A DNA stretch of 64,000 bases from a virus (IMGVR_UViG_3300031555_004294:1-64000), one strand, 5' to 3'; positions 22,288 to 30,032 are shown, counted from the first letter of the stretch. Numbers and translations: made by a program. The notes: generated by a model from the sequence alone, not told the origin.

Positions 22288-22548
22288 TTAAATTTCACCG
22301 CCATCAATGACATCTATTGACACATTTAAATCAACAATATCACTAACGCTATGCTTATGCTCACAGTCAGCTTTTTGCTCAATTACAGCGGCTACTACTT
22401 TAGTTGCTACAGGAAGTTCATACACTTCTGGAACTACTTCTTCAACATCAGTAACAATTTCATTCTTCTTTAAAAATAATTCATCCAGAGCAGTTTCCAC
22501 ACTCTGAATGTCAATTTGTTTTGCATGTATTTTATGATTGCCAGGCAT
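22288..22548 (-). CDS. Small hypothetical protein, first gene of the fibre operon
   Basis: AAAGGAG RBS; H.H..SDI.DL and terminal IDGG motifs seen in fibre proteins. Confidence 0.6.
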   Translation of the reverse strand: MPGNHKIHAKQIDIQSVETALDELFLKKNEIVTDVEEVVPEVYELPVATKVVAAVIEQKADCEHKHSVSDIVDLNVSIDVIDGGEI

Positions 22549-22605
22549 ATAAGTCTCCTTTCTGTCGTATTTTTTCCAAATTATAAAGGTGTAATATCAC
22601 TGCTT

Positions 22606-22617
22606 TAATAGTATGTT
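22606..22617 (-). promoter_or_regulatory. Putative late promoter AACA-N6-TA for the fibre operon
   Basis: Minus strand AACATACTATTA upstream of 22548. Confidence 0.65.
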
Positions 22618-22684
22618 CGTTTCCAAAAAAAAGAAAATGAAAGATTAGCTATATCATAAAACTAGCTAATCTTTCATTAAAAGT

Positions 22685-23050
22685 TTACAAATTTGCTAAA
22701 TATCTATCAAGTTCTACAGTTATGTAGTCTTCTAGATAAGCAGCTAAGATAGTGTTACCTTCTTGGAAGTAAATTAAGTTGCCTTTCTTACCTAAAGTCT
22801 TGGCATCTTGGAAGTTAAGTTGATCCTTTAGAGACTTTACATTCTTACTTTCAGTGTTAAGGTAATTGATAATGGAATCTTCCGTTAAAGGAATGAAATA
22901 TGACTCAGAAACAGGCATATAAGAAGTAGATTCTTGTAAGACGGAAGTCATATAAGCAGGACGGTGTGAAGGATGAATTACCCAGTCATAGGTCAGAATA
23001 TGGAGTGGATCCTTGATATAGGTAATATCGCCTTTTTTCTCTGAAACTGG
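22685..23050 (-). CDS. Prohead protease (T4 gp21-like), exon 3
   Basis: PVSEKKGDITYIKDPLHILTYDWVIHPSH continues in frame into ORF 22685..22951; D.V..PS motif. Confidence 0.85.
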   Translation of the reverse strand, partial: PVSEKKGDITYIKDPLHILTYDWVIHPSHRPAYMTSVLQESTSYMPVSESYFIPLTEDSIINYLNTESKNVKSLKDQLNFQDAKTLGKKGNLIYFQEGNTILAAYLEDYITVELDRYLANL

Positions 23051-24335
23051 CAGGTTATTTTGTATAGTACGTGAAGCTATACATTCTTTACATATCTGTA
23101 AAGTTTAGACTATATCTTTACCATTTTAATGAATGGTATTCTTTATAGACGTAATACTTAATACGCCAATAGTCGTTGGACCTAGCTATACTAGGATGCT
23201 GATTGTCTTTTGAGTTTCCAGCAATTAAAAGAATTTATATTATGGATTCAGCACAGTTATTAAAAAAGTCATCTAATAATTTTTCAATATCAGACATCTC
23301 TTTATATGAGATGCGGATAAAATTCATATTATTTTCAATTGCCCATTCATCTTTAATTCTATCATGCTTTTGAGTTTTTTCAAGATTTTTTATTTTATTT
23401 TCTTTAGTTGAACCATATGATGGTTCAAAATGTTGTTTTCCATCAAACTCAATAAGCATATCATAGGATTCTATATAAAAATCAAATGGCAATGGTAAAA
23501 TATCTCTACAATCTTTAAAACAAACTTCTTTTTGATATTCGATATTTCGAGTTTCTAAATACTTTGTTATCATTCTACTTCCTAATGATTCACCTAATAT
23601 TTCATTGCATCTTGGACACCTAGCATTATGATTTATAAATTCATTTGGACTACAATCGTATTCATGATTGTTACAAATATCTGAAAAATGTTTCATTTTT
23701 ATTGGAATCTTACAGTCAATATATTCATCAGCTATGACTGTATATTCTTTATCCGTTAGGTCTTCAACCTGCTTTTTATATTCTTCAAGAGTAGGTTTTA
23801 TAGTTCCATAACAATATTTACAGCCTTTAGATATTTTATCGTGAATCATATCATTAGCTTTTGGATACCATACTTCCCCACATTTTTTACAAAGGACAGC
23901 TATATTAGTATGTACCTTACTAAAAGGTCCTACGATTTCATAGACATCTATAGACCAACGTGAATAAAATCGTTCTTCATATTCTTGTTGTGTCATAGGT
24001 TTATTACCTCTATGAGATACCTTACGTTTTTTATAAAAAAATGCAGGATCTCCACATGTCCCTTTATCATCTAAGTAACGTGGTTTAGTATTCCAAATAT
24101 GTCCATCTTTATGTCTTAATGCAATATCTCCTCTAGCACCTTCAGGTGGATATGGAGTTATAAGCGTATAATCAGGATAATGTTTTTTAATTCTATCTTT
24201 TAGAATCTCTTCTCGTTGTTTTAAAGTTTTAGTAGCACCCATGTAATCAACTCCTTTTAATAAAATTAATAATTTGTTGCATGAGTGGTTTTTCTTTTTT
24301 GTAAATTATTAGACTTAGCTTAAAATTTCGGGTTT
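23051..24335 (-). mobile_element. Group I intron (IA-like) carrying a homing endonuclease, second intron of the prohead protease
   Basis: P AAUUGCUGGAA (23216-26), Q AAUCAGCA (23197-204), R GUCCAACGACUA (23170-81), S AAGAUAUAGUC (23108-18); exon ends in U, intron ends in G; removal restores SMRGFG|PVS. Confidence 0.9.
23235..24242 (-). CDS. Intron-encoded homing endonuclease, CxxC repeats plus EDxHD/Vsr-like nuclease domain
   Basis: LPFDFYI...IEFDGKQH...HD.IK....IRI; CKKC, CKYC and CPRC; own AAGGAG RBS. Confidence 0.8.
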   Translation of the reverse strand: MGATKTLKQREEILKDRIKKHYPDYTLITPYPPEGARGDIALRHKDGHIWNTKPRYLDDKGTCGDPAFFYKKRKVSHRGNKPMTQQEYEERFYSRWSIDVYEIVGPFSKVHTNIAVLCKKCGEVWYPKANDMIHDKISKGCKYCYGTIKPTLEEYKKQVEDLTDKEYTVIADEYIDCKIPIKMKHFSDICNNHEYDCSPNEFINHNARCPRCNEILGESLGSRMITKYLETRNIEYQKEVCFKDCRDILPLPFDFYIESYDMLIEFDGKQHFEPSYGSTKENKIKNLEKTQKHDRIKDEWAIENNMNFIRISYKEMSDIEKLLDDFFNNCAESII

Positions 24336-24530
24336 ACCGAATCCTCTCATTGAGAAAGCCACTTGCATTCCTTGTCTGATTAAGCCTTGCATGTCTCGAC
24401 CTCTTTCAGTTAGACATGTTTCTACTCGTCCTTTAAGTAAGTTTCTTTCCCACCAAACATCAGTAATTAAGTGAGATAGATTTGATTGATCAATGTATAG
24501 CTGTCTCTCTACAGTTGGGGATAATGGATG
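24336..24530 (-). CDS. Prohead protease, exon 2
   Basis: HPLSP...SHLI...GRVET...GR...FSMRGFG contains the gp21-type His and Ser motifs. Confidence 0.9.
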
Positions 24531-24771
24531 CAAAATATTCATACAAGTTCATTACACTTGCACAGATTATCATCTCTAGTTTAGACACTAGAGTTTAGAC
24601 TATATCTTCATCTGTTTACCAGATGTTTCTCATTTAGAACCAATTTTAGTTCTCTATAGTCGTTGAACCTTAATTTAAATTAAGGATGCTGATTACCTTA
24701 TATTAAGTACTTCCAGCAATTAAAGAAATAAGTAGTTTGCATATCACTATGCAAATCGGCAATCCTTATTT
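24531..24771 (-). ncRNA. ORF-less group I intron (241 nt), first intron of the prohead protease
   Basis: P (24711-21), Q (24687-94), R GUUCAACGACUA (24657-68), S AAGAUAUAGUC (24598-608); removal gives GEAG|HP. Confidence 0.9.
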
Positions 24772-25005
24772 ACCAGCCTCTCCCAACCATGATTTAGTTC
24801 TCAAACGTTCTTGAACATATTCAGATCTAAGAGCATTTTTAATTACATCAGCAGGATAGATACGTTTATTTCTATTTTGTATATCACCCTCTTGAAGAAC
24901 AGTTTCTATGACAGTAGGCTGACCAGATTTATCACTGATAATCTTAGGTGTACTAATCATAGCGTCTTCAGAAATGATATAACCCTTAATTTTTTCATCT
25001 CTCAA
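24772..25005 (-). CDS. Prohead protease, exon 1 (spliced product ~264 aa)
   Basis: LQEGDIQNRNKRIYP...WLGEAG matches the gp21 NRN.R.YP and GE..HP motifs; TTG start with AAGGAG. Confidence 0.9.
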
Positions 25006-25039
25006 GTTAAATAACAGCTCCTTTCTGTATTAGATTATT

Positions 25040-25051
25040 TAATGTAATGTT
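25040..25051 (-). promoter_or_regulatory. Putative late promoter for the protease
   Basis: AACATTACATTA on minus; identical 12-mer on plus at 25447. Confidence 0.65.
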
Positions 25052-25139
25052 GACTTTTATAATTTAAGCTATGATATACGATTACATTCCAAAAAAAAAA
25101 ACTTCCTTTTTAAGTAAAGGAAGTTTTTAGTAAAGTTTC

Positions 25140-25355
25140 TTACTCTTTTCTTGCTTCTACTATATCAATCGCTAACAAAGTTAAAACAAACTCTAAAGCA
25201 TTGTTATATCCTTGCTCAAAAGAAATTGATACATCAGAAATTCCATCATCTGTGATTCCATTTTCATCTATAATATTCTCTAGTTCACGTAGTTCTTCTC
25301 TATTGCTTCTGTAAGCACCTTTTATCTTTCGGATTGCATCATCAGAAATTGTCAT
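25140..25355 (-). CDS. Hypothetical protein
   Basis: 71 aa, RBS AAAGGTAGGA, TATATAT motif upstream. Confidence 0.6.
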   Translation of the reverse strand: MTISDDAIRKIKGAYRSNREELRELENIIDENGITDDGISDVSISFEQGYNNALEFVLTLLAIDIVEARKE

Positions 25356-26979: not shown

Positions 26980-28643
26980 TCTATTGAATATCGTCAAACA
27001 GCTCGTTCTAGAATGAACGATGGTTTCTCTGATGTATTAAGAGAAGCAGCTGAGTTCTTTGCTAACAAAGGCATTCAGATGACTTCCCATCAGGGTATGG
27101 AAGAAATTCTATCTGAGCAGACTCTCTTCAATGAGTATAAAGATCACTTACTTGAAGGTATGGAGCCTGACCAGGTTGAAAACTTCAATCAACTTATGGA
27201 CAACGCTCGTACCAGCATGCTTCAGGAAGCATCTGTATCTGGCGTTCAGCAAATCGCTGGCTTATCTATGCCTACCATTCGTAAGATGTGGGCAAAGGTA
27301 GCTCTAAAGCATGCTATTCCTACTCAGGTTGTTGCAACTCCTCGTTTTGCTATTTCTTACACCAAGGCATACTTAATGGATGCTGAAGGCAACAAGAAAG
27401 AGCTTCCCGATGCTATCAATAATCTAAACAACAGAGAAGCTCAGCTTCCTAGATTCGTTAACCCTGCTGATGGTCTTGTACTTCCTATGATTGACTTCGA
27501 CCTCTATGCTAATGGTTTCCCACAGGTTCCTGCTCTAAAAGGCACTGACACCATTGACAAGGTCTTCTATGTTGAGACTGTTAAGGTTAACAAGGCTGCA
27601 GTTCAGGCTGCTGCTCAAGCTGCTGAACAGGCTGCTGCTGGTAGCATGAATGGCTATGCAGGTGGTGACATTGATGAGATGACCATTCGTGTTCACATCA
27701 AGACCGACCTGAATGCTCTTATTTCTGCTCGTGTTGCTATTCCCGTTCAGTTAACTGATCCTACTACTGGTGTAGTTACTAAGTACGGTGAAGTTTACGA
27801 GACTCTACTTGGTCGTGTTGACTATGCAGATGGTAAGTTCACTTTAATGTCTTCTGGCAACATGATTACTCATGCATTTATTGATGCTCGTCTCTCTCAA
27901 GAAGCAAATGACTACGGTCAGTCTGTAAGCTTCGACGTTCTTACTAAGGACGTTACCATCGGTGTTGGCAGCCACCTGAATGCTCCTCTGCCTATTGAGT
28001 GGCTTCAGGATACTATGGCTATCTACAATATCGATGGCGCAGCTGAAGTTGTTGACTTAATGTCTCAGACCGTTGCTCAGCAGCTTGAAATTGAGATTTA
28101 CAACTTCCTTAACAACTCTATCGAAGTAAATAACATTCAGTACTTAGGTGAGTTCAATATGATTCCTTCCGCTGGTTACAATGGTACTCCTAAGAGCTGG
28201 CGTGAAGAGCTGAAGACTGTCATTGACTACTATGCAATCAAGATGAAGTCTGATGCTAAGTTCCACGGTGGTAAGTTCATGATCATTGGTAACCCCATTG
28301 ACATGCAGATCATTCCTAACGTTGACTGGGTATTCAACCACACTTCTGACCAGATGTCTGGTGTTGATGTATCCTTCAACCTTGGTGCTTTCTCTGGTGC
28401 TAACAAGTATGAGATGGTTTCTAGTGACCTAGTTCCTGCAGGTGCGTTCATTATGTTCTTCGTACCTGGAATTGATCGTCTCATGACCTACAAGTACTAT
28501 CCTTACACCTTTAACGTAGAAAGAGGTTACCGTGATCCTAATATGCCTAACGTTCCTAGTCTTATGATGACTAAGCGTCATGCACTTGAGGAGTTCACTC
28601 CCCTTATCTGCCGTATTACTATCAAGAATAATATCGGTGCCGT
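26977..28643 (+). CDS. Major capsid protein (T4 gp23-like), exon 1
   Basis: MLQE-AS putative cleavage site; E..QD..A...ID...E...LMS pattern; YKYYPY....P...P..MMTKRHA C-terminal motif; strongly biased codon usage. Confidence 0.85.
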
Positions 28644-28868
28644 TAACAAATATAGCGGTTTTATGCAGAAATGCATATCAAATCTAAAAGAATTGCTGGA
28701 AAAGCTATTGCCAATCAGCATCCTTAGAAATAAGGTTCAACGATTAAGTGTCGCATAAGTTTGCGATCTGTATTTAGAATCCAAAAGCGAGAAATGGATT
28801 ATGATATAATCTCTACTTCTATGAAAATAGAAGACTGACATCTAACAAATGTCAAACTAAGATATTAG
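28644..28868 (+). ncRNA. ORF-less group I intron at the 3' end of the capsid gene (3' splice site at G28861 or G28868)
   Basis: P AAUUGCUGGAA (28691), Q AAUCAGCA (28713), R GUUCAACGAUUA (28735), S AUGAUAUAAUC (28801) with a compensatory P7 pair; P1 GCCGU/GCGGU with U.G. Confidence 0.85.
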
Positions 28869-29036: not shown

Positions 29037-30032
29037 ATGAGTAATAAAAATGCAAAGGGTTATGTTCCTCCTATGACAGATAAAGAATTTAGAGATTTAG
29101 TTTATAGTTTAGTGGGAGATGAGTATACGGTTTTAGGAAAATATGTGAAAACTGATGTAAAAATTAAAATGAGGCATAACACATGTGGACATCAATATGA
29201 AGTTACACCAAATAAATTTCAACAAGGAAGAAGATGTCCAAAATGTTATGGAAATAAAGAAAGAACTTTAGAAAGTTTTAGAGAAGAAATCAAAAACCTA
29301 CCAGATGGAGATGAATACGAATTACTAAGTGTTGAGTGTAAAGATAACAAAACACCAATGGAATTTTTCCATAAAATATGTGGTGAAAAATTTAAAAAAC
29401 CAACTGTTGGATTCTTAACAAATCCAAAGAATAAAGCAAATACTAGATGTCCTATATGTTCTAGACAATACCAAGTAATTAATCATCCAAATAGGTTATC
29501 TTATGAAGATGTTAAGAAAATTGTTGAAACTAAACATTCTGGTGAATATAAACTTCTTTCAGACAATTATAAAAACACTAAGAGTTTGATAAAAATCTTA
29601 CATATTGGTGGTTGTGGTAGAGACTTCGATACCGATATAGACCATTTCAAAAGAAAAGACTATAAATGTCCAAGATGTAATGAATCTGTAGGTGAGCAAA
29701 GAGTAAGAAAAGTCTTAGAAAGTAGAAATATAGAATTTATACAGCAATACAGATTTAAAGACTGTAGAGATAAAAATCCTTTACCATTTGATTTTTATAT
29801 TCCAGCTTATGATCTTTGTATAGAGTTTGATGGTATACAACATTACGAAAAAGCTAATTTTGGTTCTTATGCAGCTGACTTAGATACAATTCAATTACAT
29901 GATGAAATCAAAACTAACTATTGTTTAGATAACAATATTGGTCTCATACGAATTAGTTACAAAGACTTTGATAATTTAGAAAAAGTTTTAAAGAAAGATC
30001 TAAATGAATATCTTAAGGAGTTAGATATATGA
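29037..30032 (+). CDS. Free-standing homing endonuclease, CxxC repeats plus EDxHD/Vsr-like domain
   Basis: CPRCNES.GE...FKDCRD..PLPFDFYI...IEFDG.QH...HD.IK; clearly paralogous to 23235..24242. Confidence 0.8.
   Translation: MSNKNAKGYVPPMTDKEFRDLVYSLVGDEYTVLGKYVKTDVKIKMRHNTCGHQYEVTPNKFQQGRRCPKCYGNKERTLESFREEIKNLPDGDEYELLSVECKDNKTPMEFFHKICGEKFKKPTVGFLTNPKNKANTRCPICSRQYQVINHPNRLSYEDVKKIVETKHSGEYKLLSDNYKNTKSLIKILHIGGCGRDFDTDIDHFKRKDYKCPRCNESVGEQRVRKVLESRNIEFIQQYRFKDCRDKNPLPFDFYIPAYDLCIEFDGIQHYEKANFGSYAADLDTIQLHDEIKTNYCLDNNIGLIRISYKDFDNLEKVLKKDLNEYLKELDI

Follow-up and report, generated by a model that had tools for sequence, protein, structure and literature searches.

A predicted head maturation protease gene of an AR9/PBS1-like jumbo phage, probably split by a pair of group I introns beside its catalytic residues

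The head maturation protease gp113 of the Bacillus jumbo phages AR9 and PBS1 (YP_009283018.1) is represented in RefSeq by a joined coding sequence consisting of two pieces. The present work concerns the same protein as encoded in the 64,000-nucleotide stretch IMGVR_UViG_3300031555_004294:1-64000 (the window, that is, the whole stretch of DNA analysed), where the gene seems to be interrupted twice. AR9, PBS1 and their kin are the closest named relatives of this protease gene. The gp113 gene of AR9 contains a single intron of 345 nt at the junction GEAG|HP (the bar marks the insertion site), which matches the Rfam group I intron model RF00028 with 66 bits, the gathering cut-off being 50 bits. 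The AR9 intron possesses a P5 extension and two hairpins, P7.1 and P7.2, and there is no intron at the site near the catalytic Ser. The phage of the window shares with AR9 the GEAG|HP site, the design of the guide sequence and a P10 helix with compensatory changes (ACCC/GGGU in AR9 versus AUCC/GGAU in the window), but its intron at this first site is shorter (241 nt), and a second intron, bearing an endonuclease gene, is located at RGFG|PV. The AR9 genome (NC_031039.1) gives 18 matches to RF00028 with an expect value (E) of <=0.001, 14 of them above the cut-off. They form clusters near 95-96 kb, 150-153 kb and 174-175 kb, the picture of an intron-rich phage group.

The IA-like introns of T4 td, nrdB and sunY, of the SPO1 DNA polymerase gene and of Twort orf142 and nrdE have a P/Q/R/S core, a hairpin between P7 and P3' (P7.1) and early in-frame stops in common with the introns of the window. 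Landthaler and Shub reportedly described Twort orf142 as one gene with several introns. The introns of T-even phages and phages of Gram-positive hosts are also inserted in conserved coding sequence for active sites, as in the window. Unlike them, the window introns reside in a gene for a morphogenetic protease and not in a gene of DNA metabolism, and the open reading frame (ORF) of the second intron is placed in the P1 loop, where it overlaps the guide sequence. Homing elements are known to favour active-site coding sequence (PMC12908238). Self-splicing introns, often with homing endonucleases, occur in essential virion-assembly genes as well, including terminase genes of LL-H and Moonbeam (PMC4299906), capsid and tail genes of Cluster J mycobacteriophages (PMC3706429) and terL of phage Jug, where the portal and protease genes are called merely 'fragmented' (PMC12880540); some of these genes have two or three introns. 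Those portions describe no prohead protease split beside catalytic residues. The finding is thus known in kind, with the AR9 protease intron annotated at the same site and introns in phage terminase, capsid and tail genes published, and the novelty implied by the earlier sequence-only reading of this DNA is narrowed accordingly. [quoted passage not shown]

The window corresponds to bases 78162-142161, read on the minus strand, of an IMG/VR virus record of 156.8 kb. The completeness of the record is estimated as 61%, and counts of loci cover these 156.8 kb only. A megablast search against phage genomes returned no match, and gene callers cut the protease into 'hypothetical' pieces of 79, 75 and 88 aa. 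Very probably, the locus is a single head maturation protease gene into which two related group I introns are inserted (Table 1), and it belongs to a jumbo phage of the AR9/PBS1 type. When the two intervening elements are removed, 78, 65 and 121 codons form a single open frame of 795 nt with the stop codon, encoding 264 aa, with the junction motifs GEAG|HP at site 1 and FSMRGFG|P at site 2. The last base of exon 1 is U, and that of each intron is G. Without excision, the frame would meet a stop after one codon at the first junction (AAA TAA) and after six codons at the second (AAA CCC GAA ATT TTA AGC TAA). The joined frame, the boundaries and the early stops had all been proposed in the sequence-only reading and were found again here. 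The spliced 264-aa protein is 43% identical to spliced AR9 gp113 over 261 residues (E 2e-75), the alignment being free of gaps at both GEAG|HP and RGFG|PV and that of exon 1 covering gp113 residues 6-76. Four uninterrupted metagenomic homologues (L012-L015) are colinear with the spliced protein and read through both sites.

The spliced product is predicted to be a prohead protease of the T4 gp21 type (Peptidase S77, PF03420; MEROPS S77). The Pfam profile Peptidase_S77 matches exon 1 at profile positions 30-88 with 31.9 bits (cut-off 27) and exon 2 at positions 97-149 with 17.5 bits, and the matches of exons 1, 2 and 3 to phrog_3014 are colinear (27-74, 89-157 and 166-253, respectively). Both exon 1 and exon 2 match the head maturation protease family phrog_207, and exon 1 also matches phrog_31489; a tblastn search with exon 3 found the head maturation protease of AR9/PBS1 (E 3e-17). 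A profile built of the uninterrupted homologues matched T4 gp21 (PDB 5JBL) with E 7e-9. In this alignment, the GEAGHP His and the FSMRG Ser correspond to two Ala positions of 5JBL, which we take to be the mutated catalytic residues of T4 gp21. The Asp of YDWV is aligned to D in the T4 gp21 motif VDAVWGPS. His, Ser and Asp are invariant across the protease family and occupy positions 79, 138 and 165 of the 264-aa protein; T4 gp21 has a His-Ser-Asp triad (PMC5694885). Intron site 1 is situated directly 5' of the His codon and site 2 five codons past Ser, and the placement of the introns at catalytic motifs, as originally suggested, agrees with the alignment to T4 gp21.

Table 1. Features of the split protease locus, in coordinates of the window; exons and introns are predictions
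Feature	Coordinates	Strand	Description and basis
Protease exon 1	25005..24772	-	78 codons from a TTG start to ...GEAG; final base U
Intron 1, predicted ORF-less group I intron	24771..24531	-	241 nt; RF00028 and helices P1-P9.1
Protease exon 2	24530..24336	-	65 codons; catalytic His is the first codon; holds Ser of FSMRG
Intron 2, predicted group I intron with endonuclease gene in P1 loop	24335..23051	-	1285 nt; RF00028 core and helices
Intron-encoded predicted homing endonuclease	23235..24242	-	335 aa; own AAAGGAG Shine-Dalgarno; phrog families, fold
Internal guide sequence of intron 2	23244..23258	-	AACUGUGCUGAAUCC; within final codons of endonuclease gene
Protease exon 3	23050..22685	-	121 codons and stop; holds invariant YDWVIHPSH with catalytic Asp
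Hairpin and T-run, likely terminator	22625..22675	-	directly 3' of protease stop codon; gaaagattagcta...tagctaatctttc then T-run, read from sequence

Both intervening elements appear to be group I introns by covariance score, splice-site pairing, P10, core structure and colinear excision. Intron 1 matches RF00028 over 24574-24781 with 55.3 bits (E 1.1e-13) and the core of intron 2 over 23086-23271 with 56.6 bits (E 4e-14), so that the covariance-model search suggested by the sequence-only reading came out in its favour. The matches above the cut-off were obtained with inputs of about 270 nt and in a genome search. A gathering-threshold Rfam scan of the whole 64-kb window revealed no group I match, nor did a scan at E<=10, with moderately relaxed filters, of 2.9 kb (window 22400-25300); since inputs of about 270 nt pass the cut-off, these early blanks represent losses to the speed filters. 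It is probable that AT-rich phage introns are under-called in routine Rfam scans. The helices P3-P4-P6 and P7-P8-P9 were located by script in canonical order in both introns, and the P/Q/R/S elements expected from the earlier reading are present in both (P4, UGCUG/CAGCA; P7, GACUAU/AUAGUC). Intron 1 also includes P2 with a GUGA loop, P3 (UUUCUU/GAGAAA), P5, P6, a P7.1 hairpin, P8, P9 and P9.1, and intron 2 shows the same core helices. Between P7 and P3', where IA2-like introns of subgroup IA have the extra helices P7.1/P7.2, there is a single hairpin in both window introns (AGAAC/GUUCU for intron 1, GGCGUA/UACGUC for intron 2) and there are two in AR9.

At site 1, P1 is formed by UGGU|AA/UUGCCG, with the splice-site U in a U.G pair; its register is that of the Rfam alignment, and the P10 pairing (GGAU/AUCC) adjoins the P1 part of the guide. 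A P1 drawn by hand as GGC/GCC with mismatches was discarded in favour of the Rfam register. In intron 2, a helix of 9 bp joins GCUGAAUCC to the end of exon 2, GGAUUCGGU, again with U.G at the splice site, and AACUG beside the P1 guide forms P10 with bases 2-6 of exon 3 (CAGUU). Among 5000 shuffled sequences, a P1 of that length was found in 536, and a P1 and a P10 that both equalled or surpassed these in 10. Covariation was observed among the window introns, AR9 and L010, a metagenomic relative described below, with compensatory differences in P3, P6, P8, P9 and P10. Position -4 of P1 at site 1 is U.G in the window, U-A in AR9 and A-U in L010. The candidate intron of the capsid gene (see below) has a compensatory P7 (GAUUA/UAAUC), the comparison comprising five or six related introns.

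The relatives of the locus contain different sets of introns. In a short ENA contig (ERZ27248314 k141_3166604, hereafter L024), exon 1 is fused to exon 2, position 24772 abutting 24530. This contig is a natural allele without intron 1, with the breakpoints exactly as predicted. Its identity to the window is 99.4% for everything that starts with exon 2, and just 75% for exon 1. The contig is a mosaic (L024 1-320): upstream of the insertion site the identity is 75%, the initial 36 nt of exon 2 contain 13 mismatches, and 100% identity follows for about 2.1 kb, including intron 2; the 36-nt tract looks like an edge of recombination or co-conversion beside the insertion site. Two further relatives, L010 and L011, which are 83-98% identical to the window in protein sequence per exon, possess an intron at site 1 but lack the one at site 2. 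The site of intron 2 is uninterrupted (FSMRG.G-P/G) in L010/L011, AR9 and L012-L015. L010 and L011 contain a third protease intron of 1424 nt (L010 2581-4004), which splits the Tyr codon directly before the catalytic Asp and whose U|...G| boundaries restore HILT-YDWV. The P6 loop of this third intron encodes, on the opposite strand, a 348-aa ORF with about seven tandem W..YEL.LLKKYYP..G..IPELLKTRT repeats of Myb/SANT-like look. The three insertion sites, each beside a residue of the triad, fit the known preference of homing elements (PMC12908238).

The spliced coding sequences of the window and L010 are both 795 nt long and differ by no indels; 89 codon differences are synonymous and 30 non-synonymous (21 versus 2 in exon 2). 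These counts point to strong purifying selection on the split protease gene in all three exons. The pattern of junctions and introns is beyond chance in view of the RF00028 E values (about 1e-13 and 4e-14), the gap-free alignment to gp113 (E 2e-75) and the intron-less allele with the same breakpoints.

The product of the intron 2 ORF matches families of phage endonucleases, namely phrog_559 (E 4.7e-54) along with phrog_9084, labelled 'homing endonuclease', and phrog_7140, labelled 'intron encoded nuclease', and has many metagenomic homologues, some of which are labelled as very-short-patch-repair endonucleases. An NCBIfam search gave nothing useful, and the Pfam, phrog and NCBIfam searches revealed no intein or reverse-transcriptase domain. 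The AlphaFold2 model, based on 40 homologues, has a predicted local distance difference test score (pLDDT) of 89.7, and the top PDB matches found for it by Foldseek are Vsr (1CW0, 1VSR) and the catalytic domain of I-Bth0305I (3R3P), with a probability of 1.00. The C-terminal domain of the endonuclease may share the fold of these enzymes, with Foldseek template modelling (TM) scores of 0.55-0.66 on the target. The residues D254, E265, D267, H271, D294 and K297 are conserved and present. Like I-Bth0305I ('EDxHD'), the window enzyme has conserved E, D, H and D and is intron-encoded in a phage of presumably Gram-positive hosts; unlike I-Bth0305I and Vsr, its N-terminal half is built from three repeated zinc ribbons (DUF723/DUF4379/CapR type), and there is no match at the sequence level. 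In L010, the sequence of the intron-less site 2 is ...GGATTTGGA|CCTGTTTCT....

Beyond the observed anatomy, homology, covariance scores and presence/absence polymorphism, the catalysis, homing and timing that we infer would run as follows. One pre-mRNA would be transcribed, and each intron would fold as a ribozyme, in keeping with established group I chemistry. Guanosine would attack after the exon-terminal U held in the U.G pair of P1, and the freed exon would then attack after the intron-terminal G, aligned by P10. The ligated mRNA would encode the 264-aa protease, while translation of unspliced RNA would end one or six codons into an intron. The Vsr/EDxHD-type enzyme of intron 2 would presumably cut intron-less protease alleles of co-infecting relatives and thereby have the intron copied in. 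The claim that head maturation depends on two splicing events is supported, since there is one S77 locus in the record, the unspliced frames stop early and the gene appears to be under purifying selection; against the unrestricted form of this claim, the record is just 61% complete, and a second protease gene might lie in its unsampled part.

Several observations weigh against the interpretation of the locus as a twice-spliced gene. Both splice junctions are predictions from the DNA sequence. The RF00028 matches need lax speed filters and exceed the cut-off by just 5-7 bits. P1 of intron 1 is short, with four exon and two intron pairs, and was equalled in 2867 of 5000 shuffles; not significant by itself, it is backed by its position and covariation. 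In intron 2, 1083 nt separate the 5' splice site from the guide sequence downstream, and a local hairpin around this splice site (UUCGG/CCGAA, 24327-24341, minus strand) could compete with P1. As for the endonuclease, the Foldseek E values for Vsr and I-Bth0305I are weak (2e-3 to 2e-2), and PDB sequence searches with the single sequence and with the 40-sequence profile gave noise and no match to Vsr or I-Bth0305I. The UUCGG/CCGAA pairing was also considered as the P1 of intron 2; it puts the splice-site U opposite C, and the distal 9-bp guide was preferred. The hairpin may be a transient alternative structure. It could hold the 5' splice site until the guide, 1.08 kb downstream, is transcribed.

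It might be supposed that the gene is dead, mobile elements having broken the protease, the ribozymes no longer splicing and another protease maturing the head. The Rfam scores barely above the cut-off, a record that could leave room for a second protease outside it and splicing deduced from sequence would all be compatible with such decay. Decay is very unlikely, however, given the purifying selection between two intron-bearing lineages (89 versus 30 codon differences, no indels), the intact catalytic His, Ser and Asp together with every core helix, the single S77 locus in 156.8 kb and the same arrangement kept in AR9, a cultured and viable phage. A working gene could also dispense with RNA splicing if its three pieces were translated separately and assembled as a split protease. 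Gene callers do annotate separate genes, a 75-aa frame starts at the ATG of 24542 and extends into exon 2, and phrog_31489, a family of 91 positions, matches exon 1 alone. This ATG, however, has no recognisable Shine-Dalgarno sequence, and the first ATG of exon 3 (22951) is downstream of YDWVIHPSH, the invariant block that holds the catalytic Asp. With the boundaries at canonical U|...G| sites of elements scoring as group I, and with the exact excision in L024 left unexplained, assembly from separate pieces is hard to credit.

The nature of the intervening elements has to be considered as well. Inteins are carried by phage genes, those of huge phages included (PMC12880540), and group II introns or other intervening elements could be envisaged too. 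The in-frame stops within one and six codons of the junctions speak against inteins, and intron 1 has no long ORF. Both elements score with RF00028 and contain P4, P7 and other core helices, and the 335-aa ORF has neither an intein nor a reverse-transcriptase domain; elements of a class other than group I are therefore scarcely conceivable here. The interpretation preferred is that of one protease gene with two group I introns.

A broader scenario may be put forward as a speculation only. Each triad residue would mark a separate homing site, that of His being occupied in the window, AR9 and L010, that of Ser in the window and that of Asp in L010/L011, and introns would be exchanged between co-infecting relatives. 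Intron 2 would couple its spread to the expression of the protease, ribosomes on the endonuclease gene blocking P1/P10 and delaying the protease mRNA. Intron 1, which has no ORF, would be mobilised in trans or else be co-converted along with intron 2 at a distance of 195 nt, the 36-nt tract of L024 being a trace of this. It is doubtful that all these elements hold together.

Some other observations were made in the window and the record around it. A free-standing endonuclease of 331 aa (29037-30032, plus strand), 33% identical to the intron 2 enzyme, adjoins a candidate third group I intron (28634-28833, plus strand) at the 3' end of a 598-aa major capsid ORF. The candidate scores 44.7 bits with RF00028, under the cut-off, and its P4 is identical to that of the protease introns. 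In the record outside the window, sub-threshold RF00028 matches are situated at C1:33536-33632 (minus strand) and 74289-74320 (plus strand), with 30.3 and 18.3 bits; they suggest more group I introns or remnants in the phage. A consensus scan did not list the hairpin that follows the protease gene, probably because its stem is too poor in G-C pairs. In a sigma-70 promoter scan, sites were rarer than in shuffled sequences, which made the scan uninformative.

It seems that an assembly enzyme essential to AR9-like jumbo phages would depend on RNA self-splicing, and in the phage described here would do so twice. Mobile introns have recurrently targeted the protease gene, at three sites across relatives, and in each case the distance to a residue of the triad is 0-5 codons. 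In metagenomes, the protease and capsid genes of this kind of phage are likely under-annotated, since gene callers split the protease and default Rfam scans miss both introns. The alleles with and without introns provide ready-made substrates for testing homing by the Vsr-like endonuclease.

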